Shown piece by piece: positions 1-47,724 of a stretch of DNA of 47,724 nucleotides. The stretch's first letter is position 1; every line of letters begins with the position of its first letter. Under the pieces are notes generated by a model. The model was not told the DNA's origin. It ran no database searches and saw only the letters and a list, made by a program, of their open reading frames with translations. A program made the translations under genes and the position numbers. The stretch is from Deinococcales bacterium. GTDB lineage: Bacteria > Deinococcota > Deinococci > Deinococcales > JAAFIG01. Location: assembly GCA_031414595.1 (NCBI GenBank), contig JANNVX010000051.1, forward strand, positions 1 through 47,724. Direction: 5' to 3'.

Positions 1-126
1 TAAAGATGCCGATTCTCGAGTTTTATCGCCCTTAAAAAAGAAACGCTAAAACGAGTTTTATCTCGTCAACAACAACCACACTGTCAAAGAACTCGCTCGC
101 ATTCGAGATGGTCTCGAACGAAGCGA
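1..126 (-). promoter_or_regulatory. Probable rRNA operon leader with boxB-like hairpin and boxA antiterminator; the rRNA gene would lie outside the window
   Basis: Downstream of the promoter: hairpin TTCGAGA-cca-TCTCGAA (118-102), then GAGTTCTTTGACAG (94-81) resembling rrn boxA. No ORF. The minus strand ends ...CTTTA at the edge, compatible with sequence just before a 16S 5' end (inference). Confidence 0.65.
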
Positions 127-131
127 CAAAG

Positions 132-160
132 AATGTATCACTCGAGAAGACTTGTGTCAA
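132..160 (-). promoter_or_regulatory. Strong sigma70-type promoter (probable rRNA operon promoter) firing out of the left edge
   Basis: Minus strand reads TTGACA (160-155), a 17-nt spacer, then TG-a-TACATT (137-132): a perfect -35 with an extended -10. Confidence 0.85.
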
Positions 161-361
161 CAGGTACGGGATAGGCTCGAGAAACGATAGGATTTCACGT
201 CAGAGACAGTATAAAACAGAATTATAAGTCCAAGAAAACTAAAAAAAGATGCTGTGTGAACTCGAGTATAAAGAAAAAAATGGCTCGAGATAAAAAGACT
301 CGAGCAACACACAAGTACAACGTTACAGACAACAGTAAATATAAAAAGAAGCAATCGGGAA

Positions 362-404
362 GCCCCTCATCAGCCTTCGGCAGCTTCTCCCACAAGGGGA
401 GAAG
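362..404 (+). repeat. REP-like palindromic element of the CCCTCATC...CTTCTCCC-loop-GGGAGAAG type
   Basis: CCCCTCATCAGCCTTCGGCAGCTTCTCCC-ACAAG-GGGAGAAG, with an 8-bp stem at 384-391/397-404. Resembles a widespread intergenic repeat family. Confidence 0.6.
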
Positions 405-464
405 CGCTCTTAAGGACATGGGTGCGGATGGGTGATTGACGGTAAAAAACGTTAGACTCTAAAA

Positions 465-902: not shown

Positions 903-955
903 ATTTCTAAAGCCCTTCACAGGCTGTTCTAGGTTGTGTCAGAATAGGGCTTAAG

Positions 956-3166: not shown

Positions 3167-3281
3167 GCTTTTAGTGTACATCCAAAATAAGTTTTAAGCT
3201 CGAGTCAGTAAATCTTCACGTTATCAACGATACCAAGCCCATTTTGAAACTCAAGCGCAAAGATTCGCGTAAAGTATAAGT

Positions 3282-5135
3282 ATGAAAGCCTCGAGCCTAA
3301 CCTACGGAATTATTGGTGCGATTGCCTGTGTGATTGGTGCAATTTTATTTGAAGTCCTTTTTCCTGCCACCGCTAATAACGCCCCAGAAAACAATAAAGT
3401 CGCCGTGGCACTGCTGATAGACACAAGCGGCAGCATGGAGCAAGAAGGCAAGCTCGAGGAGGTCAAACGGGCAGCTTCTGATTATGTGGCTGGGCAGAAT
3501 CTCGAGACCAACACGCTATTAGAAGGCATGAGCATTAACCGTTTCTCGAGTGATGCCAGTACGGTTTCCTTATTTTCTAAAGACACAGGTCGACACTTAA
3601 ATACCATCGGTCAATTTGTAGCCAACGGTGCAACCGAAATGGCATCTGGTTTAGAAACTGCCGCCCAGTCTTTAGGCGCAGCCGAACTTGGTACAAGCCG
3701 CGTGATTTTACTGTTTACCGATGGTCAACCGGGTTCTAACATCGAACCTGCGGAGGTGGCTAAGCCACGCACCCTGACAACCGCCAATAGTTTACGCGCC
3801 TCTGGCTACCGCATTGTGGCAGTTGGCACAGTGGATGCTGACATTGGTTTTTTGCAAACCCTGACAGGCGACCCAAGTCTGGTTTTTCCGACCAGTTCTG
3901 GTAATTTTGCAGCAGCCTTTAGTAAAGCCGATGCCAAAATCCGTAATCTCTTCTCGAGTGGCGCAGGAGGAAACCGCAACTTTGCCGATGCGCTGATTTT
4001 AGGGGCTTTGGTGACGCTCTTTCTTGGTGCGGCGCTCTTAATTGCCGAGAACACCCTTGGTTTACGTGGACGTTGGTGGCGTGACCTCCTCTGGGTGATT
4101 CCCGCCAGTGCGCTTCTTGGGGTTGGTGGAGCGCTTCTAGGGCAGGTGCTTTTTGCTATTTTTGGTGATGGCGCTCGGGTGATTGGCTGGGCAGTGGTTG
4201 GCACGATTGCGGGTGGGGTGCTTGGCTTGGCAGACCGTTCTCAAGCCAAAGCCATTCGTGGGGCAATTGGCGGCACGGTTGGCGGTGTGGTTGGTGGACT
4301 GGTTTTTAGTCTGTTGGGTGGGGCATTCTCGAGTGGGGCGCTTGAATTACTCGGGCGTTTACTTGGTTTTGCCGCATTGGGCTTTGCAGTTGGTTTAATG
4401 TTGCAACTTGTGCAACAAGCCTTAAAAACCGCTTGGCTGACTGGAATTACCACAGGGTCATACGAGGGCAAGCAGTACATTCTGGGTAAACCCGTGGTGA
4501 CTGTCGGGCGCTCCGATGGCAACGACATTGGCTTGTACCGCGAGAAAAACTTGGCACTAAACCTTGGTACATTTAACTTTAATGCTGGGCGTTGGATGTA
4601 CAACGGCGAGGCTGTGCTGGTCAATGGCAACAGTCTCTCGAGTGCCGCTTTGGTCAATGGTGACACAATTAAATTTGGCGGCACAGAATTCTTGTTTGAA
4701 ACCAAAGATGGAGGCGGTGCGCCGAGGACAGAAGAAGAAATCCCAGAGGCTCGAGTTATTCCCATTCCAGAAATTCCAGTAGTTGCTCCAATCCCAGAGG
4801 CTCGAGTGACACCTATGATTCCAGAAGCTCGAGTTATACCCATTCCAAAAGCCCTCGAGTATTGGAAATTACGCGGAGCAGAAACCCTCGAGTTACCTTT
4901 TGGCACAGTCACACTTGGACGTGGTGAAGAGAATCAAATTGTGATTCATGACCCCAGCATCAGTGGGGAACATGCTCGGCTTGAGGCTCGCGCTGAAAGC
5001 CTGAGCATCACCGATTTGGGCAGCACCAATGGTACTTTTGTCAACCGACGGCAGTTGTCCGAAAATGAAACTGCCCAACTGACCGAAGGCATGAGTTTAA
5101 CGCTTGGTGCGGTGGAGTTCCGCGTCTCGAGATGA
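3282..5135 (+). CDS. vWA domain + multi-TM region + two FHA domains
   Basis: MIDAS motif LLIDTSGSM and LFTDGQP; Gly-rich TM helices; FHA motifs VTVGRS..NDI, then TLGRGEEN, SGEHA, DLGSTNGTFVN. Confidence 0.88.
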   Translation: MKASSLTYGIIGAIACVIGAILFEVLFPATANNAPENNKVAVALLIDTSGSMEQEGKLEEVKRAASDYVAGQNLETNTLLEGMSINRFSSDASTVSLFSKDTGRHLNTIGQFVANGATEMASGLETAAQSLGAAELGTSRVILLFTDGQPGSNIEPAEVAKPRTLTTANSLRASGYRIVAVGTVDADIGFLQTLTGDPSLVFPTSSGNFAAAFSKADAKIRNLFSSGAGGNRNFADALILGALVTLFLGAALLIAENTLGLRGRWWRDLLWVIPASALLGVGGALLGQVLFAIFGDGARVIGWAVVGTIAGGVLGLADRSQAKAIRGAIGGTVGGVVGGLVFSLLGGAFSSGALELLGRLLGFAALGFAVGLMLQLVQQALKTAWLTGITTGSYEGKQYILGKPVVTVGRSDGNDIGLYREKNLALNLGTFNFNAGRWMYNGEAVLVNGNSLSSAALVNGDTIKFGGTEFLFETKDGGGAPRTEEEIPEARVIPIPEIPVVAPIPEARVTPMIPEARVIPIPKALEYWKLRGAETLELPFGTVTLGRGEENQIVIHDPSISGEHARLEARAESLSITDLGSTNGTFVNRRQLSENETAQLTEGMSLTLGAVEFRVSR

Positions 5136-6322
5136 CAAACCACGGACGACTTGAGCCGATGACTTATGAAACTGCGCTTGAATGGTTGTTTGCTCGGACT
5201 CGAGCCGGTGATGTGCGTTCTGGGATTCGCACCAGCGTTTTACTCGAGCAACGCGGGCATCCGCAAAAGACATTTAAGACGATTCATGTAATTGGTACAA
5301 ATGGCAAAGGTAGCACTTGTGCGATGTTAGCGGCTGGTTTGCAAGCCAGTGGTCTAAAAGTCGGGCGTTTTACCTCGCCGCATTTAGAAGATTACCGTGA
5401 ACGAATTGAAGTAAATGGGCAACGGATTCCCAAAGAAACTGTTCTCGAGTTTATAGAGTGGGCGCAAATTCATACAACCGATGCAGCTTTTTTTGATTTA
5501 ACCCTTGTCATGGCACTCGAGTATTTTCGCCAAGCAGCAGTAGATTTGGCAGTCATTGAAGCTGGCGTGGGCGCTCGACATGATGCCACCTCGAGTATTG
5601 AGCATGTACAAGCCACCATCATCACGAACATAGACCTTGACCATGAAGCCACGATTGGGATTGGTAACTACCCAACTGTCCTTGAGAACATCGCTTGGGA
5701 AAAAGCAGGAGGGATTCGCTTCGGAGTTCCAGTTCTAACTGCCGCAAAAGGTAAAGCATTAGAGGTCATTTGTACCGTGGCTCGAGAAAAAAATGCACCT
5801 CTGCACATTCTTTCAGACTCAGCTTTATTTGCCTTACCTCATGCCCCACTACTACAAGGCAGACATCAACTCGAGAATGCGGCTTTGGCAGTAGGCTGTT
5901 TACGATTACTTGGGTATTCGGAAAACACTGTTGAAGCCGCGCTTGGTGCTTCTTGGGCTGGGCGACTCGAGACCATCCAAGTTGACGAAACCCAATTTAT
6001 ACTTGATGGGGCGCACAATCCATCTGGCGCTCATGCCTTAGCAGCAAGTTTAGCTGGACAAAAATTCAGTCTCATTTTTGCTGCCATGAGCCGCAAGCGT
6101 GTCCCAGAAATTCTCGAGCCTTTACTGGAACTCAGCACCGAACTGCATTTTGTCTCGGTCAGTCCGCAAGGGGTTGACCCACTCGAGTTAGCCCGAAGCT
6201 ATGGTGGCACGGCACACCCCAGTCTCGAGGTAGCACTACAAGCAGTAGCATCTCGAGAAAAGGTCTTAATTGCTGGTTCGCTGTATTTGGTTGGTGCGGC
6301 TCGAGCTTATTTATTACAATAG
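5132..6322 (+). CDS. folC: Bifunctional folylpolyglutamate synthase/dihydrofolate synthase
   Basis: IHVIGTNGKGST, FTSPHL, EAGVGARHDAT, LDGAHNP, GSLYLVG. True start may be the ATG at 5159. Confidence 0.95.
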   Translation: MTNHGRLEPMTYETALEWLFARTRAGDVRSGIRTSVLLEQRGHPQKTFKTIHVIGTNGKGSTCAMLAAGLQASGLKVGRFTSPHLEDYRERIEVNGQRIPKETVLEFIEWAQIHTTDAAFFDLTLVMALEYFRQAAVDLAVIEAGVGARHDATSSIEHVQATIITNIDLDHEATIGIGNYPTVLENIAWEKAGGIRFGVPVLTAAKGKALEVICTVAREKNAPLHILSDSALFALPHAPLLQGRHQLENAALAVGCLRLLGYSENTVEAALGASWAGRLETIQVDETQFILDGAHNPSGAHALAASLAGQKFSLIFAAMSRKRVPEILEPLLELSTELHFVSVSPQGVDPLELARSYGGTAHPSLEVALQAVASREKVLIAGSLYLVGAARAYLLQ

Positions 6323-14380: not shown

Positions 14381-14416
14381 TTTAGAATACATAAATCTAA
14401 TGTAGTTTAGAATACA
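14377..14416. repeat. Perfect 15-bp direct repeat (two copies), possible tandem operator
   Basis: GTAGTTTAGAATACA at 14377-14391 and 14402-14416. Confidence 0.7.
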
Positions 14417-14477
14417 CAACTCCCCAATCTCGAGATGGGCGACATTGTTTCCGTGAACGCTTACGATAGCTGTTACG

Positions 14478-14828
14478 ATGTTAGCCGTTTTACTTAAACC
14501 TCAGAGCCAAAAAAAACATGACTACCGTCTGGTATACCAAACGGCAAACCACGAATCATTAAAGGCGCTGCTTGGCGTTTGGCAGGCAGTAAACCGCCAA
14601 CAGGCTTGGCATCGGTTTGAGATTTTACATGGTGGTTTGGTGTTGCTGAAACTCAAATCTGGGGTGACCGTCAGTGGAAAAATCGAGTTTATGGATGAAC
14701 AATGTACGGTGTCGTTGTTTTTGCACAGCAACCATGAACCCGTACAAATCTCAGGTTCATGGTGTCTTTGGCGCGGGGCGCTCGACTTTTGTTTTTTAGG
14801 TGAGTACCTGCTTTTTAGTCAAGATTGA
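14478..14828 (+). CDS. Hypothetical protein (116 aa)
   Basis: ATG ORF filling the gap before the convergent pckA, with a 14-nt 3' overlap. No family recognised. Confidence 0.5.
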   Translation: MLAVLLKPQSQKKHDYRLVYQTANHESLKALLGVWQAVNRQQAWHRFEILHGGLVLLKLKSGVTVSGKIEFMDEQCTVSLFLHSNHEPVQISGSWCLWRGALDFCFLGEYLLFSQD

Positions 14829-16443
14829 TGTTTGGCGCAGCCATAGAACCGATGTTTGGCGCAGCCAGTAGCACTTCTGGGCTAACACGGTGTTCAAATT
14901 GCTTAAAATTTTGGGCAAACATCAGTGCCAGTTTTTTAGCTTGGGTATCGTACTCATCACCATTTTCCCAAGCATCTCTTGGGTTTAGCACTTGACTTGG
15001 TACACCGTTAATCTCGAGTGGCATGGCAAGGTTAAAAATCGGGTGTTGAATCGTTTGGGCGTTCTCGAGTTGCCCACATAAAGCAGCCCGAATCATGGCT
15101 CGGGTGTGCTTGATGCTGATGCGTGTGCCTGTGCCATAAGCACCGCCGACCCAACCCGTATTGACCAACCAGACTTGGGTGTGGTGTTCTTCGATTTTTT
15201 CACGCAGCAAGTCGGCGTAAATATGCGGTTCCCTGGTCAGGAACGGCGCACCAAAGGCGGTTTCAAAACTGGCTTGAGGTTCGGTAATGCCTTTTTCTGT
15301 TCCCGCAACTTTGGCAGTGTAACCATTTAAGAAGTAATACATGGCTTGTTCTGGGGTCAGTTTAGAAATCGGTGGCAGCACCCCAAAAGCATCGGCGGCT
15401 AAGAAAATAATGTGTTTAGGATGTCCGCCTAGACTGGGCAAACGCGCATTCTTGAGTTGCGTTAGTGGGTAAGCGGCTCGGGTATTCTCGGTCAGGGAAT
15501 CAGAATTTAAGTCGAGTTCACGGGTCTGCATATCAAAAACCACATTCTCGAGAACCGTGCCAAAAGTGCGGGTGGTCTTGTAAATCTGTGGTTCGGCTTC
15601 GGGATTGAGTTTGATCACTTTGGCATAACAACCACCCTCAAAGTTAAATACACCTGTATCTGACCAGCCGTGTTCGTCATCGCCAATCAGGTCGCGTTCT
15701 GGGTCTGCCGAAAGCGTGGTTTTGCCTGTGCCGCTCATGCCAAAGAACAGGGCTACATCTTCGGTTTTGCCAATGTTTGCCGAGCAGTGCATCGGCATGA
15801 CATTACCGGCTGGTAACAAATGATTCAGCACCGTGAAAATACTTTTTTTGATTTCACCTGCGTAACTTGTGCCAACAATAATCACCAGTTTGCGTTTGAG
15901 GCTAATGGCAATTTGGGTCTCAGACCTCGAGCCGTGACGGTCTGGATTGGCTTTGAAACTTGGGGCGCTGATGACCGTAAAACTTGGCGTAAAAAGCGGG
16001 GTTTCGGCTTGTGGACAAGGAATAAATAAATTACGGGCAAAGTGATTATGCCACGCATTTTCGGTCACGACCCGCACCCCAAGGCGGTAACGGGTGTCTG
16101 CCCCAGCAAAGCAGTCTAAGACAAAGGCTTCTTGATTTTGGTAATGATTTAGCACATCTTGGTGCAGTGCTTCAAATTTACTTTCCTCGAGTTCTTGTTG
16201 GTATGGGCTTGCCCACCAGATTTCCGCTCCAAAAATTGGTCCGCGCACCACAAATTTGTCTTTGGCACTGCGTCCGGTGTGCTGTCCAGTGTGGGCAATA
16301 AAAGCGCCAAATCTCGAGAGCCAACCCTCACTGCGACGCACTGCTTCTTCGATTAAGCGGGTGGTTGGCAGATTGTAATGGATGGCTTTAGCCGAGAATC
16401 CTTGGGTCTCGAGTGGTGTGGCACGGGTTGAATCGCTGTGCAT
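14815..16443 (-). CDS. pckA: Phosphoenolpyruvate carboxykinase (ATP)
   Basis: TGRSAKDK, YAGEIKKS, PMHCSAN, FFGMSGTGKTTLS, IGDDEHGW, FEGGCYAK, ENTRAAYP; RBS AAGGAG. Confidence 0.98.
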   Translation of the reverse strand: MHSDSTRATPLETQGFSAKAIHYNLPTTRLIEEAVRRSEGWLSRFGAFIAHTGQHTGRSAKDKFVVRGPIFGAEIWWASPYQQELEESKFEALHQDVLNHYQNQEAFVLDCFAGADTRYRLGVRVVTENAWHNHFARNLFIPCPQAETPLFTPSFTVISAPSFKANPDRHGSRSETQIAISLKRKLVIIVGTSYAGEIKKSIFTVLNHLLPAGNVMPMHCSANIGKTEDVALFFGMSGTGKTTLSADPERDLIGDDEHGWSDTGVFNFEGGCYAKVIKLNPEAEPQIYKTTRTFGTVLENVVFDMQTRELDLNSDSLTENTRAAYPLTQLKNARLPSLGGHPKHIIFLAADAFGVLPPISKLTPEQAMYYFLNGYTAKVAGTEKGITEPQASFETAFGAPFLTREPHIYADLLREKIEEHHTQVWLVNTGWVGGAYGTGTRISIKHTRAMIRAALCGQLENAQTIQHPIFNLAMPLEINGVPSQVLNPRDAWENGDEYDTQAKKLALMFAQNFKQFEHRVSPEVLLAAPNIGSMAAPNINLD

Positions 16444-17696: not shown

Positions 17697-17697
17697 A

Positions 17698-29800: not shown

Positions 29801-32800
29801 GGCAACTGGGCAATGGACAAATCCGCAAATTGTTTTTTCGGGCTTACTAAGCAGTACAGATAAAGTCTTAGACTCGAGTCTGAAATTGACCTATAAAAAC
29901 AATCAAGCCGACTTAAGTGTAGCTGGCACGGCTTTGAACGCCCAAGGTACTTGGAACAATGGCACTTGGAAAGCGACAAGCACAACCAGGAACCTCGCGC
30001 TTGAAACGTACTTACCCGATAATCTTCTGCCCAAGGAACTCGAGCAGGTGCTTATTTCTGGTTCGTTTGCAGCTTCGGGAGAGGGCAGCACATGGGCAGT
30101 CAGCAGTCCCAATCTTGATGTTGTAGCAACCGTGGACACACTGGGCAAGGCAAGGGTTCAAGGCAGTGCCGAACTCAGTCCAGAATTACTCGAGACCAAT
30201 CTAAAACTCGAGGTGTTAAACGGCAGCAGCCAAATTGAAGCCAAAATCCAAAATCCACTCGAGACGAGTAAAGCCACCCTAAAAGTGCAAGCTGAACTGA
30301 ATAAACTTGATGCAGGACGACTGGGGACTTTAGGGGTTAAAGGCTTGGTGTCTGGCAAATTGAACTTAACCGGTGCATTACTCGAGCCAGAAGTTAGTGC
30401 TAGTTTAGAAGTTCTCAACGCTGGTTTACAAAATGAAACTTGGTTTGTCAGCAGTAACTTAGAAGCCAAAGGTCAATTACTCAATCCTGCTCTGAACGGC
30501 AAGGCATTTTTATCGGGGACTGGCAAAGGCAATTTTACTTGGGGGGCTGCCGAAATTCTTTCTAAAACCCCGACGGTTCGTTTTAATGGTCTTGCCGAAC
30601 TGCCAATTGCTCGAGTGCAAGGACAACTCGAGGGGAGTTTGCCGAATTTACTTGGACAACTTGAACTCAAAACTTCTCAATTACCCGAAGCTATTTCGTT
30701 GTCTGGATTGGGTGATGGTAACTATAAAATTAGCAGTCCCGAACTTGCCAATGGCACATTCAACCTCAAAACCCAAGACTCTTGGCTCGAGAGTGCTTTA
30801 AGTGGAAAAATCCGCGTTAATGGTCAAACTGACCTTGTGGTGCAGGGTTTAGATGCTACGGTGTTAGGGGATGTTGTACTGGCTGGAACACTGACCAAAC
30901 CAGTCGTGAAGCTCGAGAATACTGCCATCACCAGAACCGATGCGACGGTGCTAAGCGCGGGAGAACTATACCCTGTTCTGGATTTACAAGGCAGCTTAGA
31001 GAGTCGTTTTGAATTCGCTCCTGCAAAGCTGGCGTACACCTTAACGGGAACATTTGAAAAACCAGACCTGAACATTTTTGGCGTACTCGGCACAGCCCAA
31101 CTTGGTTTAATTGCTCCAGACACACAAATCAAAGGCACTTTCGATGGTCAAAATTGGCGTTTGGACTTGGCAGGAGAAGCTCTTTCGGGGGTTCTCGAGG
31201 GGGGGCTGCTGAGTTTGTCTCGAGCCGAATTAAAACTCAATGCGCCGATTGTTTATTTGGATTCGCAATTGACAGCCCTTGGCGACCTAACTTGGAATAC
31301 CAAGCAGGGTTTTGGTGGCAACCTGAATCTGGTTGGGCAATTATTTGGGCAGGACAGCAAACTCGAACTAGCCGGTAAAAATAATTTGGAAGCCAATTTG
31401 CGTTGGAAAAACGGGGCATTACGCGCTTCACTGCCGAATCCGACTGCCGAAAAACTAACAGCCTCTTGGGAATTTTTGGATTTTGACTTGGGTGCATGGT
31501 GGCAAAAACCAGACCAGCTTCGTATTTCGGGGACTGGGCAGGTTTTGGGGACTTGGACAAAGCCAGAATTGGTCTTTGATGGTGCGCTCGACAGCACCGA
31601 CAATTCGCTTGATGCCAAACTAGGAGCGCAGTACCAAGGCAGTGTTATCAGTGCCAAGCTCGAGGGTGCAAAAGCCAAACTCGAGGGAAAGTATGAAAAT
31701 GGTATTTGGAAAGCCACCGGAAGCCTGAAAAAAGTTTCTCTGGCGGCGCTCTTGCCAAGTTCGGTGCAGTCCCTCGAGACCAGCCTTGAATTTAACGCCA
31801 GTGGTGATGACCAAGGTTTGAGTGTTGAATTGCAATCACTCGAGACCAGTGGCAAACTCGAGACGATAGGGGTGTTTAGTGCCAGTGGTGCAGCCAAACT
31901 CGAGGGGCAGTATGAAAAAACTGGTTTAGAAGGCAGTTTGGAATTAAAAAATGTGGAACTTCAAGCACTGGATGGCACAGCTAAAATCAATGGAAAACTC
32001 GGGGCAAAAAATGCACCGCCAGCCTTATTTATCAGTCTGAATAATCTGAATCTCGAGTCTTTTGGCTTTACGGGACGTGCTTTTGCCGAACTTGATTTGG
32101 CTGGAACATTATCCAATCCAATCGTGTCTGGCAATCTGCGCGGTACGGATTTGGGCTTAAAGGATGAAAAATGGTCGGTGGATGCCAATTTAGCTCTTAG
32201 CCGAGAATTACTCAATCCAGAATTCTCGGGCAACTTAGATTTCAAAGGCACGGGCAGTGGACAGTTTAATATTGCTATGTCCGACCTGCTCTCAAACCGC
32301 CCAAATCTGGCACTGACGGGCGAGGCAAAACTCCCATTCCTAAGTGCCAAAGGTAGTCTGGCGGGGCAATTTCCAAACCTACAAGGTAATCTGGATGTGA
32401 CCCTGCCGACTGCACCAATTGCCCTGCGTCAAATTAAACTCGAGGGGATACAGGGGAGTAAATTACAATTATCGGTTCAAGATGTGCTGCAAGGTCAACT
32501 TGAGCTAGTAGCCGCTAAAACCCTGCTTGGCACGGGCTTAAAAGGTAAATTTGCGGTCAATGCCTTCCTCAGTACGGCGCTTGAAGGGATTCTAAACGGC
32601 GCAGATGGTCAGTTAAATGGCGAACTCGAGGTTACAGGGTCGCTCGAGGAACCAATGGTGAGTTTACTTGGTAGCTTAAAAAATGCGGCTGTAAGTGGTG
32701 TCAAACTCGCCGATGCGACAATTGCTGGACAGTATCAAAATGGTTTAGCGGGAATCCTGCGTTTCAAAAATGGCGAAATCAAACTCGAGGACAACCGTTT

Positions 32801-35800
32801 AAGTGCCAGTAACGTTCCGCTTGAGGTGGCTGGGGTGAGGGCGTTAATCAATGCCACAGGACGCACCGCACCGTTTGACCTGAACTTCTCGAGTGCCGTG
32901 TCTGGTAATGCGACTGGCACAATCGAGGGGCGGTACATCAATCAGCAATTGGGGCTAAAACTCGACCTTTTAGCCAGTGGGATTCGGGCGCTTGGTACTG
33001 CCAGCAACAGCCCTGCTGGTTGGGCTGGACAAATAAGTGTAAGCGGCTTACCTAAAGCTGCGCCAATCAGTGGTAAAAGCCTGACTGGAACAGCCCAACT
33101 GAGTATTTCTGGGGCTTTGGCTGAACCAATCCTCAACGGCACTGGTGATTTGTATGGAGCAAAATTTATCCTGAATGGTAGCTTATCGCCACTGAAAGCC
33201 AGTTTACAATTGCTCGAGGCGGGTTCTGGCAGGTTATTACTTGAGGACAACAAGTTATCGGGCAAAATAGTCTACCAAGATGATGTGCTTGCTCTCGAGC
33301 TTGGGGCTTCGGGTTCTTTAAGCATCCCAAGTGCCAATCTTCAAGCCAAAGTTGGTGCATTACAAGCCAGTGCCAAAGTCAGGCTCGAGACCAACCAAAT
33401 CAATGCCAGTTTGGATTTAAGCGATGGTCAAGACAAAGGGCGTTTTACGTTTGACAATGGGCATGTTTTTGGAACAATACAAAACTTGTCTTTAGCCAGT
33501 ACAGGTTTAGCTGGTTACGCTGGAACACTGAACATCAAAGCTGATTTGCAACAAGACCAAAACAGTGATTTTGGTTGGCAAGGCACAGCCGATGCCAATT
33601 GGCAGAACTTAAAAACCCCGCTTGAAGTGCCTTCCCTAGGCTGGAAAATAGATGGTTCTGGCAAGGCTGTTCTTAGCACCAACCCAGTGCGGGTCTTACT
33701 CGAGTACAAAGGAACACCTGGAGTCGCCAGTGGCGATTTGGCGTTTAGAAAAGGCTTATGGCAAGGCGACTTAGACGTGGATTTACAAGGCGCAGAAGGC
33801 AAGGGGGCAGTCAAAGGTAAGGTGCGAGCCGACGAAAAAGGCATCACGGGCGATTTAACCGCTCAGAATTTACCTGTGTCCTACTCGGGTGTGCAGGCAA
33901 CGGTTTCGGGTAAAGTGGATTTGAATGGCGATTCATTTGAATTACTAGGTAGTGGTAAAGCCCTAGGCGGAGATATTCGCTTGGATGGCAAAGGTGGTTT
34001 GTCTGACCTCATACCTCTGCTCGAGGCGTACACCAAAACCCAACCGGGTGACTTACCCATAAATCTGAATGCCAGTGTTTTTACAGTGCGTTTACAAGAC
34101 CTTGCCCAGATTCGATTCTTTGCCCCTTACTTAAAAGGACGAGTCAATGGCAGATTAAAAATCGTTGGTGACGCAATTGGTTTTCAACTGAACTTACCCG
34201 AAGTGAGTTTGCCCGATCAAAACGGTCAAAAAATCATTATGGCAGCCAATGTCAACGGAACATTAGCGGGAAATTTAGTCAGTTATTCAGGTGCATTTTT
34301 TGATACGCAAAACCAAAATCCAAACCCTGACACCATTGCCTTAATAGGTGTTGGCAGGTCAAATTTTGTGGGTCGCTTCAATGGCAAAGTTGCTACTGGA
34401 CAACTCGAGTTGCGTCGCGCCCCACTTCATGCTTTAGCAGCCAGTATCCTTGGAGAAATGCCCGGTACTGCCCTTGCGACTGGTTTTGCACGTTATGAAA
34501 TCCCAGTGGACAACTTATTAGCCTCAACCATCAAAATGGATTTTGTACCGCTCGAGGTCTCTGGTGGTGGTGATGTGCTGCGTGGCAAAGGGCGCTTAAT
34601 TTATAGCAATGGCAATCTGCAATTTGATGACCTGATTTTGCGTGGCAAGGGCGAATGGCGAATCAATGGCAATTATGCCAAAGACAAAGTGGATTTAGCA
34701 ATGTCGTTTAAGAACACCGTCTTTACCCCCATTTTAGATTTAATCCCGCAAATTAAAGACTACGACCCTCGAGCCACGGGTAGTTTGGATTTGCAACTGA
34801 GTGGGGCTTACGGCAAACCTGATGCTAAAGTCAGCCTCAAAGACCTGACCGCTTCAATCAGTGGGGTGCAACTAACCGCCAAAGAACTGCTTGGCAGCTT
34901 AGACAAAGGCGCATTGCAAGTTCGTGGTGTTCTGGTTTCCGATGACACACTTGGCGCAACCCTTGACACCACCGCCAAAGCCAAACTGATTTCCTATACC
35001 CCTATTCAACTCGAGGACTTAGAAGCCAATGCCTCGGGTAGCTTGAACATCAGCCCAATTGGTTTAATAAAAGACATTAAAGCCCGAGTTTACGGTGATT
35101 CTGGTGGTTTTAAGCTCGATATGGCTGGCAAAAAAGGTGGCAACTTGGCAATTCGAGGGGACATTAGCCCACGCCTAAAATTAAAACTCGAGGGTAAAGC
35201 CCTGATGATGCCAATTCCAGATTACTTTGTGGCAGATAGTTTACTCGATGCCGTCCTGACTTTTGAAGGAGACGGCGGACGTTACTATGATGTCGGTGGG
35301 CAGTTAAACATTGCGCGTTTACAAACCCAGTTACAACAAAATAATAGCCCCGCAAGCACCCCCAAACCAAGCACCCCCAGCAACAGTAGACCCAATCCGT
35401 TTTTACAACAAGTGCGTTTTCGGGGCATTGAAATCACGGCGGCTCAAGGTTTACGGGTTTCAGAGTCATTTGCCACCCTCGAGGCTGGCGGCAAGTTGCT
35501 GCTCACGGGAACAATGGCAAACCCCGAACTCAGTGGGGCGCTCGAAGCTGTGGGAGGTTCTGGCGGACGCGGCTCGGTACGCCTTGGGATTAACAATTAC
35601 AACATTCAAACGGCGGTGGCTGCTTTTAGCCCCATCGAAGGAATTTATCCAAGTATCGAAATTAAATCTAAAGGCGAAGTCAAAGCCTCTTGCACGACGG
35701 TCGCCACACCATCCACAACAACAGTTCTGGCTATCCCAATAGACCTCACCATTCGGGTACGGTGGCTGCCAGACAGTAAAAACCCAAATCTAAAACGCAT

Positions 35801-36389
35801 AGATGTACAACCTACCGTACAAGGTAACTGCCCAGACAATGGCACATACCGCCGTTTGGAAGCCGCCGAATTGTACTCGCTAGTCACCCTCGGCAGCAGC
35901 AACGCCAATCTTGGTGGACTGGCACAACAATCGCTGGACACGGTTTTATCGGTCTTTATTTTGGGGGAACTGACCCGACAAATTAAAGCCGCCACGGGCA
36001 TAGACATAGATTTTCGCAGTAACCTGATTGAAGTCGTTGCCCAGAACATCTCCGACCCTGCCACCCAAGCGGCGATTAACTTTACGCTGAATTTTGGCGT
36101 GGATTTATCTCGAGCCGTGCGTTTGAATGTCCAATTGAACAACAATATCAATCGCACCCTTGGCGGAGAAGTTGGCTTAAATATCCAATCCGAAGATGGT
36201 CAGTTTGGAATTCGTTTTAGCACCCCATTTAACTTTGTAGGCAATAATTTCTTTAATACCACCAAACCAGAAGTGCAACTGACTTGGAATTTCTTACCGA
36301 GTGCGGGTGTGAGCTTGACTGGGTTTTTCTTGCCGAATCAACCGCAATTTACTTTTGGTATTAAACTTGGTTTTAGCATTAGGTTTTAG
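23880..36389 (+). CDS. tamB: Giant TamB/AsmA-like translocation-and-assembly module protein (4169 aa)
   Basis: Single N-terminal TM anchor; long Gly/Leu-rich beta-strand repeats with GxLxxP motifs; DUF490-like C-terminal region (LLLTGTMANPELSG); ends in the beta-signal-like GFSIRF. Confidence 0.85.
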   Translation: MMRRWFAFFAGIIVLLGLVVFLAAGSQPALRFALAQAKAAGFEINAKTLRGNLFLGVEAVDATIKSAFISGSGASIRAKYNLVTLLQKKELRLEASVSGGRLSFDPAGLPPVPEGGEPPPIHVFLDSANLSDTVFEFIGKNIFVPDAKVTLLSQSALPSQNGKTRGNVRVKLESKDGGGFATALYEFGKDFEPNLVIDTELDAAVANYWLKPIPMDIQGGKLRGTVRVTATSVSADATLENGAVEVLPNLVASNIAGRASFDTNGLVKAKLTGQGLGGSLQADFELSTKPKQEYWKINGKLRPRLEQIMKTFANGTPGKGALEVTVSGGGWQKLKLNGSVKGLETLEAAGFPVQNLRGTWQFTDHLEVSASAVTKIGMDSLNAVADIKSVGEKIVITPELTGIFLNAPLELSGIIQVLGEKIGINAGGAILRGDVDAQINLQGEKISGTGKFGSVQLPLPKPVVSSVNGTAKLSGTVNNLLIAGFLNPASLEIPAIDLNNISGAYKLRFNGKALTAEANLADGAVVANGAIINTDGTPARGSVFVRGLRFEPGGQADYNAQYVLNGAGIALAGVARGYNLNFSEVKLDDLTGVLSVAVGQEIRGRWNASKLLATFTDKSLNLRPRDWRVRAAGETAFVGGDLTLTYDQLKTTGKLTGKTRFGTITALGQGSQIGLSGRAGFNGLQAALNGALQLEPFNLRLAAVPQNKSLGGKILLVADQDFQVSGNLESNGQDLQIGFTKTGLSAKGKLDLSALAPVFPVGTRDLLKGIADINISGSSGTGLVRGVVAGIPIEARLRSNNLQISTEVRVTGGQFAGATVSGEVFPSVNARVNYVGLSARVRGSYDNLGINGSGTLPASLLAGTGLSLASNQFTLTGRYQNGLLTASGRVGGLQIRNAKLENGVLGADFSGDLAGTYQAEPLRLQGLNGSLEQRGSRLEVRATAKSALGVFRGSPISAGGVTANFSQQNNKNIFWFNASSATGTFSGVKTQVGNASGVLNLNGNALDLEARAERATAQTSAGLVTALGLSATSQGVVGRLPIRFKAAKLEATGFEANALFNQVSGTVTIAQSQSFTANFESGKVQHPEANATIGAGQISGNLRSQNLETRFSLPILNASARGENAKISAKGSLGLNLDQPSKNWRGNLEAVAVSADWRLGASGNWQNLNVTGYLPTRLSSLAGVELPTYLQTNVAVNGRLGLPSLQYNLGLIAKLPALQLNASLKGQNTVFQARLEAKDTAKGKGTLVYASSGLASVDFSNLDITALSQVQGTISGQLALNKKSLRGNLNGNLAGFPVTATWLENDAFSGEIGGVLPVQMKSGKWLFPLETVLELETQASELPIRGKARFNLSNFRGQGQLELLTYKQNLGNGELILNPQVMPFQIALQDGLRFRLENPAGALRFVAESWSGQLGLAYTAFNQVGTATARVSGGLSNPNLSLETTGLLQLKGSGNLEKAQANGRLALQPLLASLPKELQTGIKAGSAGFEATWKAGVLGFKTSLENTQLDQQAVRLNLSGQFRNTVWNAKGDVATGSSLSSFEVSNTGFKAEKLDLDLRLARLFALDLSGRVSGQIELPMYDLGKLEANLKILEARGFGVSANGTLQASRGSVTTTLRGSTPLNLDYGISGAVYPNLNAALELGQLTGLVTGSQLETNNRVLDLNLRGLYLEKNSKLTATIRGDDLQANATWDAANLIATGKISDLSAVGRLEITDLQGIAGLAGSAKAKLEYQKNTLSILDIAADAAGFKATGSAKYADGALQLEQFKVIGSDIVAFGSGQLLPKLELLGTAKTTFAFAPTDLTWEALGTLEQPKVSAKGVLQEASLGLVAPNTALEATFDGQNWRLQLAGQALSGVIEGGLSFVSSANLRLNAPIVFEENRLTASGNLAWNTKAGFSGGLNVLGQLFGESGGLKILGRNELEIISTWRDLNLKATLPSQIGSELEAKLELERVDVGAFYGKPKVVWLEGEGKATGQWTNPQIVFSGLLSSTDKVLDSSLKLTYKNNQADLSVAGTALNAQGTWNNGTWKATSTTRNLALETYLPDNLLPKELEQVLISGSFAASGEGSTWAVSSPNLDVVATVDTLGKARVQGSAELSPELLETNLKLEVLNGSSQIEAKIQNPLETSKATLKVQAELNKLDAGRLGTLGVKGLVSGKLNLTGALLEPEVSASLEVLNAGLQNETWFVSSNLEAKGQLLNPALNGKAFLSGTGKGNFTWGAAEILSKTPTVRFNGLAELPIARVQGQLEGSLPNLLGQLELKTSQLPEAISLSGLGDGNYKISSPELANGTFNLKTQDSWLESALSGKIRVNGQTDLVVQGLDATVLGDVVLAGTLTKPVVKLENTAITRTDATVLSAGELYPVLDLQGSLESRFEFAPAKLAYTLTGTFEKPDLNIFGVLGTAQLGLIAPDTQIKGTFDGQNWRLDLAGEALSGVLEGGLLSLSRAELKLNAPIVYLDSQLTALGDLTWNTKQGFGGNLNLVGQLFGQDSKLELAGKNNLEANLRWKNGALRASLPNPTAEKLTASWEFLDFDLGAWWQKPDQLRISGTGQVLGTWTKPELVFDGALDSTDNSLDAKLGAQYQGSVISAKLEGAKAKLEGKYENGIWKATGSLKKVSLAALLPSSVQSLETSLEFNASGDDQGLSVELQSLETSGKLETIGVFSASGAAKLEGQYEKTGLEGSLELKNVELQALDGTAKINGKLGAKNAPPALFISLNNLNLESFGFTGRAFAELDLAGTLSNPIVSGNLRGTDLGLKDEKWSVDANLALSRELLNPEFSGNLDFKGTGSGQFNIAMSDLLSNRPNLALTGEAKLPFLSAKGSLAGQFPNLQGNLDVTLPTAPIALRQIKLEGIQGSKLQLSVQDVLQGQLELVAAKTLLGTGLKGKFAVNAFLSTALEGILNGADGQLNGELEVTGSLEEPMVSLLGSLKNAAVSGVKLADATIAGQYQNGLAGILRFKNGEIKLEDNRLSASNVPLEVAGVRALINATGRTAPFDLNFSSAVSGNATGTIEGRYINQQLGLKLDLLASGIRALGTASNSPAGWAGQISVSGLPKAAPISGKSLTGTAQLSISGALAEPILNGTGDLYGAKFILNGSLSPLKASLQLLEAGSGRLLLEDNKLSGKIVYQDDVLALELGASGSLSIPSANLQAKVGALQASAKVRLETNQINASLDLSDGQDKGRFTFDNGHVFGTIQNLSLASTGLAGYAGTLNIKADLQQDQNSDFGWQGTADANWQNLKTPLEVPSLGWKIDGSGKAVLSTNPVRVLLEYKGTPGVASGDLAFRKGLWQGDLDVDLQGAEGKGAVKGKVRADEKGITGDLTAQNLPVSYSGVQATVSGKVDLNGDSFELLGSGKALGGDIRLDGKGGLSDLIPLLEAYTKTQPGDLPINLNASVFTVRLQDLAQIRFFAPYLKGRVNGRLKIVGDAIGFQLNLPEVSLPDQNGQKIIMAANVNGTLAGNLVSYSGAFFDTQNQNPNPDTIALIGVGRSNFVGRFNGKVATGQLELRRAPLHALAASILGEMPGTALATGFARYEIPVDNLLASTIKMDFVPLEVSGGGDVLRGKGRLIYSNGNLQFDDLILRGKGEWRINGNYAKDKVDLAMSFKNTVFTPILDLIPQIKDYDPRATGSLDLQLSGAYGKPDAKVSLKDLTASISGVQLTAKELLGSLDKGALQVRGVLVSDDTLGATLDTTAKAKLISYTPIQLEDLEANASGSLNISPIGLIKDIKARVYGDSGGFKLDMAGKKGGNLAIRGDISPRLKLKLEGKALMMPIPDYFVADSLLDAVLTFEGDGGRYYDVGGQLNIARLQTQLQQNNSPASTPKPSTPSNSRPNPFLQQVRFRGIEITAAQGLRVSESFATLEAGGKLLLTGTMANPELSGALEAVGGSGGRGSVRLGINNYNIQTAVAAFSPIEGIYPSIEIKSKGEVKASCTTVATPSTTTVLAIPIDLTIRVRWLPDSKNPNLKRIDVQPTVQGNCPDNGTYRRLEAAELYSLVTLGSSNANLGGLAQQSLDTVLSVFILGELTRQIKAATGIDIDFRSNLIEVVAQNISDPATQAAINFTLNFGVDLSRAVRLNVQLNNNINRTLGGEVGLNIQSEDGQFGIRFSTPFNFVGNNFFNTTKPEVQLTWNFLPSAGVSLTGFFLPNQPQFTFGIKLGFSIRF

Positions 36390-38031: not shown

Positions 38032-39075
<1,044 letters not shown>

Positions 39076-46700: not shown

Positions 46701-47446
46701 AAACGGGCTTCTTCGGCAAATAAATCTAAGCCCCCACGTAATTTTAGTTCTAAAGTAGCAAAACGCCCAGCCGTACCACGGCGCTGGAACACTCCACCAA
46801 AACGCCCCATCAGCCCCCGAAGTTGTGCCTCGAGCGAATCTGGATGTTGCATTGCGGGAAGGCGCAAGGCTTTCCACAGGCTTGTACCCCCAAAACTTGG
46901 TTGCCCATCCAAAAAAGATTCGAGACTCGAGATGACACTGCGGTAAGCACTAGAACTTGAAATCACTTCGTCTTCAAATAAATCTTTGTAGGGCGTAAAG
47001 GCTGGATTGTTGTTCTCGAGCCAAAGCAGCAGCATTTCCTCGAGCAGAATTTCTTTGTTGGCAGGGTTGGCTAGGTAGTCCCCCTGTTTTTGCTGCCCTT
47101 TATACACAGGGGTTGGCGGGAATTCTTGGGTAAAACGCGCCAAGGTTGCTTCTAAGCGGTCGCCGTACTGGGTTCGGAGTGCCTCGAGTGCTTCTTGCCA
47201 GAGTCTTGGAGCATGATTCTCGCGGTATTCGAGCAGTATGCCGTGCAGCACCTCGTCTATTAAGCCCATGGCGTTGATGTCGCCGGCTCTGGCATTGCGC
47301 CCCGGCGTGACCGCGTTGAGGGTCGCCGCAAAGCGCCGGGCTGCCGCAAAATCGGCGAAAATCACCCGACCAGAAGTGGTGAACAACGCCTCATCAAAAT
47401 TATGGCGGTCACGGACAGAACCAAGAATGTGAAACTCGAGCATCAT
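43703..47446 (-). CDS. GH13 alpha-amylase-family protein with Lys-rich linker and C-terminal helix-hairpin-helix domain
   Basis: DMVPNH, IRFDAA, LLAEAFW, SNPDE catalytic-region motifs; KKPKKTA low-complexity tract; DDLTRIEGIGPKIA HhH motif. Confidence 0.9.
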   Translation of the reverse strand: MMLEFHILGSVRDRHNFDEALFTTSGRVIFADFAAARRFAATLNAVTPGRNARAGDINAMGLIDEVLHGILLEYRENHAPRLWQEALEALRTQYGDRLEATLARFTQEFPPTPVYKGQQKQGDYLANPANKEILLEEMLLLWLENNNPAFTPYKDLFEDEVISSSSAYRSVISSLESFLDGQPSFGGTSLWKALRLPAMQHPDSLEAQLRGLMGRFGGVFQRRGTAGRFATLELKLRGGLDLFAEEARFFVAQNVREFGGGSEFKAEAQIRSVSRQMLMDEPEAFTLDQNWMPRVVLMAKNAFVWLDQLSKQYKQEIRTLNQIPDAELENMARWGITGLWLIGLWERSAASKEIKHRMGNPDAVASAYSLWDYSIARALGGDAALENLKARAWRYGIRMASDMVPNHTGIDSKWMAEHPDWFLQRTESPYPSYTYDSQNLSTDKRMQVFLEDHYYDKSDAAVTFKYVSQNGQTRIIYHGNDGTSLPWNDTAQLDYMNPAAREAVIQTIFRVARQFPIIRFDAAMTLAKRHIKRLWFPEPGSGEGIASRNEYGMTREEFDQIMPNEFWREVVDRAATEVPDTLLLAEAFWMMEGYFVRTLGMHRVYNSAFMVMLRDERNAEYRDVIKNTLEFEPEILKRYVNFLSNPDEKTAVEQFGKTDKYFGIMTLCATLPGLPMLGHGQVEGYTEKYGMEYQRAYYDEKPDLGFMAHHQTQIFPLLKKRYLFAEVEHFALFEVNHDHVFAFSNRSSFERALVFYNNSTHYANVTVNSCLYSERASGIVEALQLSNKSNQFVIYRDNVSNLEYIKNSLKLGQAGFQIELGAYGRAVLLDWREVADTDGRYARLEQMLGGRGVEHIETAVQELYLEKILTPWNDLVNSSHARALLEPTALLFGEFEAKAKALSDGIELHTKKELSGDMFAVGLRSDLEGIKASTAEIALEQLALATLKRVAILTEAAPQAVAAEWLLERQLTRAFRDLSNGYAQRSAARVLLLTANLEALEEAKTSADLIEFLILDVNSDLAIGLNTFETKRYVNAEAFAQWVVSASRNSSQSKLLETTEAAVVDNGYCLDFPVSPSKKVAKASKKTVTKKPKKTAIAKPKKPAKTTKKKVATPAPSSSRKGVLVTTKTKATTKPTIAKSKPSVGATELPATGGNPVQAPDDLTRIEGIGPKIASALIAANITTFSVLAAADNATLKTAIQAAKIRLAPSLETWAEQASLLARGDEVGFAALTDSLVAGRKAKKTKR

Positions 47447-47649
47447 GAGAGGTACGATACCAAAAAAGGTTAGGGGTTTGTGATTGCGGCTACACTAAAC
47501 AATTTACGGCGCAAACCAGAGACTACGGACTCCACGACAAAACACCTTTCGGTACTCGCATAGCTCGCCAATGTCCGACACCGCACTAAGGAACTGTCCA
47601 AGAATAACTTCCTGATTTCAAATAGACCAAAAACAGACAATTGGTCACA

Positions 47650-47723
47650 GGGCGGACACGGGGGTCCGCCCCTACCTGACGTATTTTTATGGATTTTGTA
47701 GGGACAGACCCCTGTGTCTGTCC
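47650..47723. repeat. Inverted pair of GTAG-family REP hairpins (REPIN/BIME-like)
   Basis: Minus strand GTAG-GGGCGGAC-N6-GTCCGCCC (47675-47650); plus strand GTAG-GGACAGAC-N6-GTCTGTCC (47698-47723). Confidence 0.8.
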
Positions 47724-47724
47724 T

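Follow-up and report, generated by a model that had tools for sequence, protein, structure and literature searches.

The subject of this report is the hexamer palindrome CTCGAG in the DNA of an uncultured lineage of Deinococcales, whose related records are metagenome-assembled genomes. The window, by which we mean the whole stretch of 47,724 nucleotides analysed, is identical to contig C51 of genome G000 (4.49 Mb in 120 contigs, 47.2% GC; G, g and f numbers denote the genomes, genera and families used in our comparison across Deinococcota). Among its genes are those for a Mur-ligase-like protein, a phosphoenolpyruvate (PEP) carboxykinase, a ketol-acid reductoisomerase and one very long product; these features are collected in Table 1, together with the motif-poor places found elsewhere in the same genome. 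CTCGAG occurs 253 times in this DNA (5.3/kb), with 11-33 sites per 4 kb, as against 5.4 ± 2.3 copies (maximum 12) in 100 dinucleotide-preserving shuffles of the window. An earlier reading, made from the letters of the window alone and called here the sequence-only reading, had counted 43 copies in positions 1-6000 and six within 1-305, and had described a high density over most of the window; both counts were reproduced exactly, and its pointer to Deinococcota proved right.

Table 1. Features of the window and motif-poor islands of genome G000, with the CTCGAG sites that they carry.
Feature	Position	Strand	CTCGAG sites	Remarks
ORF-free stretch	window 1..305		6 (at 15, 141, 176, 261, 284, 299)	no open reading frame (ORF)
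Mur-ligase-like gene	window 5132..6322	+	13 (10.9/kb)	densest long gene
PEP carboxykinase gene	window 14815..16443	-	7	
4169-aa ORF	window 23880..36389	+	78 (6.2/kb)	no match to a Pfam family (E 1e-5 or better)
Ketol-acid reductoisomerase gene	window 38032..39066	-	1 (1.0/kb)	
Motif-poor island	C46:24000-43999 (G000)			low-GC polysaccharide/O-antigen cluster
Motif-poor island	C14:20000-39999 (G000)			SIR2-like gene and 3646-aa Rhs/PT-HINT polymorphic-toxin-like gene, SUKH neighbour
Motif-poor island	C8:34000-46000 (G000)			1194-aa protein assigned to no family; two pilin-like N-methyl proteins

The abundance extends to the whole genome, in which 23,235 copies (5.17/kb, or about one per 190 bases) place CTCGAG first in count among all 4096 hexamers, at 23.9 times the zero-order expectation. 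The bases flanking the sites are almost uninformative, with a slight deficit of C at -1 and of G at +1, and the 18 variants that differ from the motif at a single position are present in only 173-1368 copies each, so that the iterated word is exactly the hexamer. G follows CTCGA in 90% of cases, and 69% of all TCGA tetramers fall within CTCGAG; the commonest one-mismatch variants are the transition neighbours, which are not depleted. A dispersed repeat or miniature inverted-repeat transposable element was rejected as the source of the copies, since their flanks are random. An assembly artefact was also rejected: 19 assemblies, one of them a single contig, contain the motif, as do independent contigs of public sequencing runs. 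One contig of 37,391 bases from a public-run assembly covers window positions 14000-18000 with no differences, although that run may itself be the source of the window; among related strains from a second study, none of 40 differences examined (of 318) lies inside the 18 CTCGAG sites of the same interval. The sequence-only reading had inferred a genome-wide motif, vulnerable to its being missing from raw reads or from the remainder of the genome; the word was found in the rest of G000, in all 18 other genomes of the family and in the public-run contigs.

To place the sites relative to genes we used a rough model of G000 in which 3866 ORFs, none shorter than 300 nt and none overlapping another, make 88% of the DNA coding, a proxy constructed with no gene caller. 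Under this model the density of CTCGAG is 5.14/kb in coding and 5.34/kb in intergenic DNA, and the coding sites are divided among frames 0, 1 and 2 as 12,082, 3,992 and 4,299. The window shows a corresponding partition, with 151 sites in frame 0 (CTC GAG, Leu-Glu), 41 in frame 1 (nCT CGA Gnn), 46 in frame 2 (nnC TCG AGn) and 15 in the 3261 bases assigned to spacers. When synonymous codons were swapped within each gene, preserving the protein and the per-gene codon usage (a usage itself inflated by the motif), 2021 ± 30 copies remained against 20,420 observed, an excess of 10.1-fold overall and of 9.2-, 9.4- and 15.6-fold in the three frames; codon permutation gave an expectation of 930 (22-fold excess). 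The earlier claims that the motif is written in all three frames and between genes, and that codon bias is insufficient to account for it, thus held, and confinement of the enrichment to one frame, which would have spoken against them, was not observed. These results confirm that CTCGAG in this genome is not a by-product of codon usage.

The relation is rather the reverse, in that the motif dictates codon choice and, to a degree, protein composition. Outside CTCGAG, CTC makes up only 8% of Leu codons and GAG 21% of Glu codons, so that the word is built of codons that the genome otherwise avoids. Yet 12,102 of the 20,173 Leu-Glu dipeptides (60%) are encoded as CTCGAG, as are 4,005 of 8,112 [SPTA]-Arg-[VADEG] tripeptides (49%, as nCT CGA Gnn) and 4,313 of 11,788 occurrences of x-Ser-[Ser/Arg] (37%, as nnC TCG AGn). 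Leu codons standing before GAG are CTC in 85.6% of cases and elsewhere in 8.3% (odds ratio 66), and Glu codons following CTC are GAG in 92.6% and elsewhere in 21.0% (odds ratio 47). In samples of 20-96 kb, the two odds ratios were 79 and 66 in genomes G157 and G156 taken together, 21 and 6.9 in G042, and 0.9 in the motif-free G158. The proteome is shifted accordingly: the ratio of observed to expected (o/e) Leu-Glu dipeptides, calculated from composition, is 2.23 in G000 and 1.20 in G158, while the reversed dipeptide Glu-Leu in G000 stands at 0.98.

Comparison with same-genus relatives showed that individual sites are retained well beyond background. Sampled alignments to G000 comprised 75 kb of G005 (92.3% identity), 27 kb of G001 (91.0%), 24 kb of G004 (84.9%) and 271 kb of G003 (77.9%). 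CTCGAG was kept in place at 356 of 397 sites in G005 (0.686 for all hexamers), 109 of 126 in G001 (0.640), 101 of 135 in G004 (0.429) and 1022 of 1437 in G003, where the 71% retained compares with 28.5% for all hexamers and is the highest value among 3577 hexamers; the conservation of site positions that the sequence-only reading had proposed to look for is therefore pronounced. As a neutral control we took the codons CTC, CGA, TCG and NCT and compared their four-fold degenerate third position where they form part of the motif and where they lie outside it. Differences amounted to 17/425 (4.0%) inside and 20.2% outside for G005, 6/128 (4.7%) and 28.1% for G001, 18/157 (11.5%) and 35.8% for G004, and 161/1347 (12.0%) and 55.5% for G003, a three- to six-fold lower rate of change within CTCGAG over the four relatives. 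Spacers behave similarly, 7.1% of intergenic bases inside the motif and 21.2% outside differing from G003. All six positions are protected.

Turnover of sites proceeds mainly by synonymous transitions, with transitions of the outer and the inner cytosine equally frequent (129 and 126; in frame 0, 87 cases of CTC GAA and 85 of CTT GAG), so that no deamination hotspot at one cytosine of the motif was detected among the aligned same-genus relatives. In 11,107 window positions aligned across five genomes, one or more of the genomes has a site at 78 columns; 30 of these are common to all five, and 13 are private to G003, the most distant. Words of G000 that differ from CTCGAG by one base correspond to CTCGAG in the relative in 23 of 193 cases for G005 and 135 of 663 for G003 (hexamer medians 0.011 and 0.016), the highest such rate among about 4000 hexamers, although these pairwise counts are unpolarised and a high rate is expected at equilibrium simply because the motif is abundant. 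The independent information accordingly resides in the roughly five-fold suppression of change at neutral positions and not in the per-neighbour rate.

A subset of changes involves several bases at once. Among differing hexamers with CTCGAG on one side, at least three of the six bases had changed in 13 of 81 in G005 and 8 of 29 in G001 (8.1% for all differing hexamers), and in 8 of 47 in G004 (12%). The flanks (±40 nt) of multi-base changes diverge by 0.16-0.18, compared with 0.10-0.11 for single-base cases, a pattern that fits imported alleles or fast-evolving segments better than one-step writing. One-step writing of the motif was rejected on this basis, the multi-base excess (two- to three-fold) being real but modest and located in divergent flanks. 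Several examples lie in the window: between genomes about 8% apart, differences of at least three bases occur at 5745, 5781, 6043 and 6236, within the Mur-ligase-like gene, and at 16147, such changes of three to four bases being exemplified by CCAAAG/CTCGAG and ATTTAG/CTCGAG. That gene has undergone several gains and losses of CTCGAG among close relatives.

The PEP carboxykinase gene illustrates the effect on proteins. Its orthologs carry 6-16 copies of CTCGAG within the family, none in G158 and 0-4 in other outgroups; some positions are common to several genera, and lineage-specific sites match amino acid replacements that create Leu-Glu or x-Arg (LKR->LEQ, IKH->LEH, L[CNGQS]G->LEG and TQV->ARV). 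A tree of PckA proteins recovered the family as monophyletic with G158 outside it; six high-GC rows represented wrong-strand ORFs, and the rest of the tree was not used. Outside the family, proteins of Gemmatimonadota and Chloroflexota (54-60%) come about as near to the window's PEP carboxykinase as those of other Deinococcota (51-56%), the protein of G158 being the exception at 62%. The ketol-acid reductoisomerase gene is an example of a strongly constrained gene with few sites. At the left end of the window, positions 1-276 are a repeat found at contig ends, with copies at G000:C83:1-276 (83% identical), G005:C767 (97% over 140 bases), G006:C11, G006:C59 and G003:C1; this is probably a multi-copy element responsible for breaks in assembly.

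Taken together, these observations demonstrate a sequence-specific, directional force on the DNA itself that keeps CTCGAG at 4-9 copies/kb. The force bears on each of the six positions and acts alike in spacers and in genes, whatever the frame; islands of recent acquisition feel it weakly or not at all. It is strong enough to fix amino acid changes, and has doubled the frequency of Leu-Glu in the proteome. That the motif belongs to a system maintained by something, in the manner of the cyanobacterial highly iterated palindrome HIP1, had been the central proposal of the sequence-only reading, and the suppressed change at four-fold sites, the proteome shift and the codon-shuffle excess uphold it.

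The distribution of the motif was surveyed in the 41 nearest genomes (with densities based on rounded genome sizes) and then in 364 genomes of Deinococcota; nothing stated here depends on G327, which is flagged as unpublished. All 19 genomes of the window's family, representing five genera, carry 4.3-6.8 copies of CTCGAG per kb; the other four families of the order, within the 41 nearest genomes, range from 0.03 to 2.9/kb. Further motif-rich taxa are scattered through the phylum. Genus g23 of family f3 includes G156 (8.6/kb; 58% complete) and G157 (7.0/kb), in contrast to their congener G158, a 2.3-Mb Deinococcaceae genome (95% complete, 5 contigs) with 0.30/kb and no enrichment. G042 (genus g19, 67.5% GC) has 3.6/kb, a 10.7-fold enrichment. 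Intermediate densities occur in genera g26, g27 and g13 of family f5 (2-3.5/kb) and, in family f2, in g34, g40, g41, g51, g56 and g14 (2-2.8/kb) and g6 (about 1.6/kb); in all of these f5 and f2 genera CTCGAG outnumbers its reversal, GAGCTC, by a factor of about 4 to 100. Genera g7 (111 species; 0.01-0.36/kb) and g9 (about 0.9/kb) contain GAGCTC about equally often, and the roughly one copy per kb of some high-GC outgroups is accounted for by common CTC and GAG codons.

A 527-aa chaperonin-like protein provides a reference for the contrast within g23. The G157 protein is 91% identical to those of G158 and G156, 85-86% to those of G020 and G042 and 77% to that of G000, and this one marker supports g23 as a real group inside f3. 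The genes contain 11 copies of CTCGAG in G157, 8 in G156, 8 in G042, 5 in G000, 1 in G158 and none in G020; a conserved Leu-Glu is written CTC GAG in G157, G156, G042 and G000, but CTT GAA, TTG GAA or CTG GAA in G158 and CTG GAA in G020. The motif is thus heritable at the level of the lineage and can be lost, being present or absent lineage by lineage in Deinococcota. A search of viral contigs for three clustered copies returned at least 128 stretches, and none of the 80 loci that measure 2 kb or more bears the signature of the family; the matches listed are mostly high-GC phage DNA in which CTC and GAG are common codons, and are uninformative on phages of these hosts.

Along the chromosome the sites are placed almost at random. 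Gaps between copies in G000 are near-exponential, with a coefficient of variation (CV) of 0.99, a mean of 191 and a median of 138; counts per 1 kb give a dispersion index of 1.01 and counts per 5 kb one of 1.56, and no short-range or helical periodicity was found in this genome except the codon period of 3. Departures are limited to close pairs. Tandem copies (gap 6) are absent against 121 expected; such tandems would create GAGCTC, which occurs only 6 times in all of G000. Pairs at 8-20 bp reach 0.23-0.54 of the plateau and those at 31-60 bp 0.8, the distribution being flat beyond, and the hairpin with a 6-bp stem that close copies would form may suffice to explain the deficit. Sites with a neighbour less than 40 bp away were also less conserved, at 0.71-0.81 against 0.91-1.0 in G005 (rho 0.148, p 0.003), with p 0.036 in G003 and the same sign, not significant, in G004 and G001. 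At larger scale, only eight overlapping 5-kb windows (2.5-kb steps) contain eight or fewer copies, and they fall in the three places listed in Table 1, which still carry 1-1.6 copies/kb. The content of these islands is typical of horizontally exchanged cargo; that imported islands are poor in the word implies that it accumulates with residence time.

The exceptional abundance of CTCGAG is accompanied by a near-elimination of most other hexamer palindromes. Of the 64 such words, about 40 fall below 0.1 of expectation in G000, G003 and G005, among them GGCGCC, TGCGCA, CGATCG, GACGTC, GAGCTC, GTGCAC, CGTACG, ATCGAT, GTCGAC and TTCGAA; the tetramers GGCC and GATC have o/e ratios of 0.01 and 0.14, and the window contains no GAGCTC, GGCC or CGATCG. 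Spared are CTCGAG itself (24-fold), AAATTT, CAATTG, TTGCAA and AGCGCT (1.8-2.2) and GAATTC (1.3). Small samples of G157 and G156 resemble G000 in this respect; in G158 and G042 most words are near 1. Such avoidance implies a very large restriction arsenal, present or past. About 30 DNA methyltransferase genes were found in G000 and about 16 in G157. In G158 there was no match to PF07669, PF01555, PF00145 or PF02384 and a single weak match to PF02086 (E 2.6e-4); in G156 no methyltransferase of these five Pfam families was detected, in an assembly 58% complete and of a kind of gene that bins poorly.

Searches for the machinery eliminated several specific candidates. The XhoI-family nuclease (PF04555) is absent from all 19 family genomes, on which ground XhoI-type restriction-modification (R-M) was rejected; it was found only in the outgroups G021, G033 and G031, where its neighbour is either an N4/N6 enzyme of 340 aa or a gamma-class methyltransferase of 583 aa. 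The G031 copy is broken: at C1, about 1.094-1.096 Mb, the nuclease gene has TGA and TAG stops next to an intact 583-aa methyltransferase, and the pair may be a decaying R-M system leaving an orphan methylase. Homologs of these two XhoI-adjacent methyltransferases were not recovered in G000, the best matches being 23-29% identical over comparable lengths. Vsr (PF03852) was found neither in G000 nor in 15 other family genomes, and in only 4 of 75 Deinococcota genomes (G042, G309, G029 and G148), the last three not hyper-enriched; its occurrence is unrelated to that of the motif. In G042, at C11 (about 83.9-86.4 kb), a C5-methyltransferase gene is overlapped by a Vsr gene and followed by a SNF2/ResIII helicase. 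This is the only Dcm-Vsr pair seen in a CTCGAG-enriched genome, and a bias of that type could contribute in G042 alone, were the specificity of the enzyme CTCGAG.

Nor did a conserved orphan methyltransferase emerge from five Pfam families over five representative genomes, or from 29 C5-type ORFs. None of 24 methyltransferase ORFs of G000 has a counterpart in all five representatives (at least 30% identity over at least half the length); PF01555 enzymes are missing from the single-contig genome G013, whose two enzymes of the D12 class are matched by orthologs in G011 (62% and 77%) but by none in G000; no C5 enzyme was found in G010 (91% complete). Clustering of the 29 C5-type ORFs gave no cluster spanning the genera of the family, and the only notable multi-genome cluster (at least 50% identity) unites six genomes of the window's genus g1 with G157, other family genera lacking it. 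Its members include G000:C22:27952-28836 and one on G157:C27, and the shared group suggests R-M exchange between two motif-rich lineages. An enzyme with Eco57I and TaqI_C domains encoded on G000:C89, the nearest solved relatives of which are CamA and BseCI and not TaqI, was also set aside as a CTCGAG methyltransferase: its specificity cannot be inferred and it occurs in only part of the family. The TaqI_C domain itself is patchy, occurring in 6/16 family genomes and in 3/3 genomes of g9, a genus that is not enriched, and being absent from G042 and from g23 (0/3). Competence genes failed to discriminate, ComEC and DprA occurring in G013, G157 and G042 and equally in the motif-free G158; they were not found in G156 (58% complete). 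The search for a CTCGAG methyltransferase proposed by the sequence-only reading was in this sense unproductive, no ortholog spanning the family. Of the three mechanisms that it had offered side by side, methyltransferase-linked biased repair is not supported in its very-short-patch version, Vsr being absent from the 16 family genomes tested; other forms of such repair, uptake or recombination bias and a DNA-binding protein are weighed below.

No report of CTCGAG hyper-abundance was found in the full-text literature, a coverage that leaves out most subscription journals, the matches being cloning primers and unrelated papers. The closest known system is HIP1 (GCGATCGC), which, as reported by Xu, Lawrence & Durand (2018, PMC5861425), is 15-300 times over-represented, conserved within and between ORFs and periodic at 10-90 kb. 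Both words are short GC-rich palindromes in order-of-magnitude excess, located in genes (all frames) and spacers; both are kept in place beyond background, and the function of both is debated; both are lineage-wide traits, with exceptional members that lack the word or use another. CTCGAG differs in its phylum, its sequence and its length of six bases instead of eight, is five to ten times denser (one per 120-230 bases) and visibly reshapes the proteome (Leu-Glu 2.2-fold); it further differs in that no cognate orphan methyltransferase was found lineage-wide and most other hexamer palindromes are almost totally avoided.

Other iterated words are more remote. The DNA uptake sequences (DUS) and uptake signal sequences (USS) of Neisseria and Pasteurellaceae are asymmetric, 9-12 bases long and present at about 1/kb, with inverted pairs enriched in terminators; they are accommodated in coding DNA and are thought to accumulate by drive through biased uptake in competent bacteria. 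CTCGAG resembles them as a family-level, genome-wide over-represented word that also occupies coding DNA, in genomes possessing ComEC and DprA. Very-short-patch repair by Dcm and Vsr in Escherichia coli raises CCWGG, a small effect that concerns one T:G mismatch only. CCWGG and CTCGAG are alike as over-represented palindromes, the former a methylation site pushed by sequence-specific correction; Vsr, however, is missing from 16 of 16 family genomes tested, all six positions of CTCGAG are protected, and the enrichment is 24-fold. Chi sites of RecBCD/AddAB are over-represented short words that mark own DNA and promote recombination, an analogy that has been used for HIP1 (Kamoku & Nielsen 2024, 10.1101/2024.09.10.611283). 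They are asymmetric, orientation-biased and far rarer, and a palindrome such as CTCGAG cannot carry orientation. CTCGAG is a real and strong HIP-type palindrome, apparently unpublished; it differs from HIP1 in word and in phylum, is denser, and exacts a visible cost from the proteome.

As to what supplies the force, we tentatively place first, by analogy, a HIP1-like tag of own DNA favoured in natural transformation or recombination. A fragment bearing CTCGAG, perhaps only in methylated form, would stand a better chance of uptake, of escaping degradation or of recombination; alleles with the word would replace alleles without it in transformation; and the resulting molecular drive would require no benefit per site and would affect all six positions equally. 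This ranking rests on the experiments with HIP1, the equal protection of positions, the dependence on residence time, indications of local redundancy and of imported alleles, and the competence of the phylum, Deinococcota being known for natural competence and DNA repair. In transformation, HIP1 gave an increase of up to 7-fold and, in methylated form, of more than 100-fold, an effect ascribed to uptake or processing and/or Chi-like action (Kamoku & Nielsen 2024, 10.1101/2024.09.10.611283); its abundance is reported to correlate with what are there named type IV secretion system proteins, and it has been proposed to be a sequence recognised in the uptake of DNA (Rodriguez-Cruz et al. 2026, PMC13756078). 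Close sites are less conserved and close pairs are depleted, both of which hint at local redundancy, and the multi-base changes in divergent flanks are as expected of imported alleles. Several points weigh against a transformation tag. ComEC and DprA are present to the same extent in motif-free G158, and no receptor or reader of the word was found among the candidate families tested; unlike DUS and USS, that word is palindromic, only six bases long, present at 5/kb in genes and spacers alike, and depleted in close pairs. The close-pair deficit and the lower conservation could merely reflect avoidance of hairpins with a 6-bp stem, and the near-exponential spacing (CV 0.99) provides no strong evidence of selection for even coverage. 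Should methylation be required, there is no family-wide methyltransferase ortholog, and none of these enzymes was found in the 58% complete G156. Conservation of neutral sites, finally, fits selection, transformation or recombination drive and loss-blocking repair equally.

Methylation could instead be central, a CTCGAG methyltransferase marking the sites for strand choice in methyl-directed mismatch repair, with selection for dense sites as the result, as Elhai (2015, PMC4390886) proposed for HIPs, or for a non-Vsr repair towards the methylated word. We regard this as possible but doubtful. It agrees with the wealth of methyltransferases in motif-rich genomes (about 30 genes in G000 and 16 in G157, with essentially none in G158), with the methyltransferases that adjoin XhoI-family nucleases in three outgroup genomes, with the C5-methyltransferase overlapping a Vsr gene in G042 (10.7-fold enriched), and with the co-occurrence, reported in Elhai's study, of each alternate HIP (GGCGCC, RCCGGY and GCSGC, all cyanobacterial) with a cognate methyltransferase. 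CTCGAG methylation also exists in nature: m5C is present at 533 of 560 sites in Halorubrum sp. BOL3-1 (PMC8112702), and methylated CTCGAG occurs in hot-spring Fimbriimonadia and in one host-phage 'Group 2' (10.64898/2026.06.24.734251), in both cases at ordinary site density. It is at odds with the lack of any family-wide ortholog (G013 having no PF01555 and G010 no C5 enzyme), the patchiness of TaqI_C, the scarcity of Vsr (0/16 in the family, 4/75 overall), the equality of outer and inner cytosine transitions (129 and 126) and the fact that transition neighbours are the commonest variants. The two explanations are compatible if the transformation tag must be methylated. A different role, as sites of an abundant nucleoid-associated or chromosome-organising protein under weak selection at each site, seems unlikely. 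A palindrome suits a dimeric reader, the six positions are equally protected, spacers are conserved like genes, and the depletion of pairs below about 20 bp, and mildly to about 60 bp, might represent a footprint; for HIP1, a periodicity of 10-90 kb led Xu et al. (2018, PMC5861425) to favour a role in the nucleoid. Yet no candidate protein was found, spacing is near random with no short-range periodicity, and the complete loss in one species of a genus (G158) is hard to explain.

The remaining explanations dispense with function. Were the motif the neutral by-product of a purely mutational or repair bias, its equal density in genes and spacers, its accumulation with residence time and the two- to three-fold excess of changes of three or more bases (13/81 in G005 and 8/29 in G001, each against 8.1%) would follow readily. 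A five-fold suppression of loss, however, would demand an enzyme able to recognise words that match in five of six bases, wherever the mismatch lies and whatever its type, and we know of none; moreover, Vsr is absent, the multi-base changes lie in divergent flanks, and thousands of amino acid replacements have been fixed for sites, so that we give this account little credence. The palindrome avoidance suggests another passive origin, CTCGAG being one of the few GC-containing palindromes left untouched by a large restriction arsenal that has pressed about 40 of 64 below an o/e of 0.1 in G000, G003 and G005. Survival of this kind predicts an o/e of about 1-2, as in the other spared words (1.8-2.2), and not 24; it predicts neither the four-fold conservation nor the amino acid changes, and G042 attains 10.7-fold enrichment with no general avoidance of palindromes, all of which makes it very improbable. 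We attach practically no weight to the idea that codon usage, amino acid composition, a dispersed repeat or the assembly has produced the excess as an artefact or side effect: common CTC and GAG codons do account for about 1/kb in some high-GC outgroups, but the excess is ten-fold over a codon-preserving shuffle in all frames, flanks are random, and 19 assemblies agree, including the single-contig one.

New in this work are the patchy and graded distribution of the motif in the phylum, the contrast of G157 and G156 with G158, and the link to palindrome avoidance and methyltransferase load, as well as the negative results for Vsr, XhoI, TaqI_C and a conserved methyltransferase, the lack of a cytosine hotspot, the results on spacing and neighbours, and the nature of the motif-poor islands. 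A broader proposal, speculative and in our estimation doubtful as a whole, is that CTCGAG is the word of a system of self-marking by word frequency in a second phylum, a palindromic kin tag for transformation or recombination that spreads by molecular drive and is gained and lost with a large restriction arsenal. Such a tag, perhaps read in methylated form, would spread to one copy per about 150 bases, rewriting thousands of codons and residues; its gain or loss as a unit with the restriction arsenal is suggested because the contrast of G157 and G156 with G158 falls within one genus. The force involved, with odds ratios of 47-66 and a doubled dipeptide, matters for the modelling of codon usage and protein evolution and for binning, and XhoI should cut G000 DNA into fragments of about 190 bases unless CTCGAG is methylated. 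HIP1 has stayed unexplained for three decades, in part because it was known from one phylum only. A denser, independent case in Deinococcota offers a second system in which to test methyl-directed repair, an uptake signal, a Chi-like signal and a nucleoid site, with natural contrasts at hand in a genus that has two motif-saturated species and one motif-free and essentially methyltransferase-free species, and in graded lineages at 2-3.5/kb. If the proposal is true, HIP-type palindromes would be a general bacterial device favouring exchange with kin, and not a cyanobacterial oddity.

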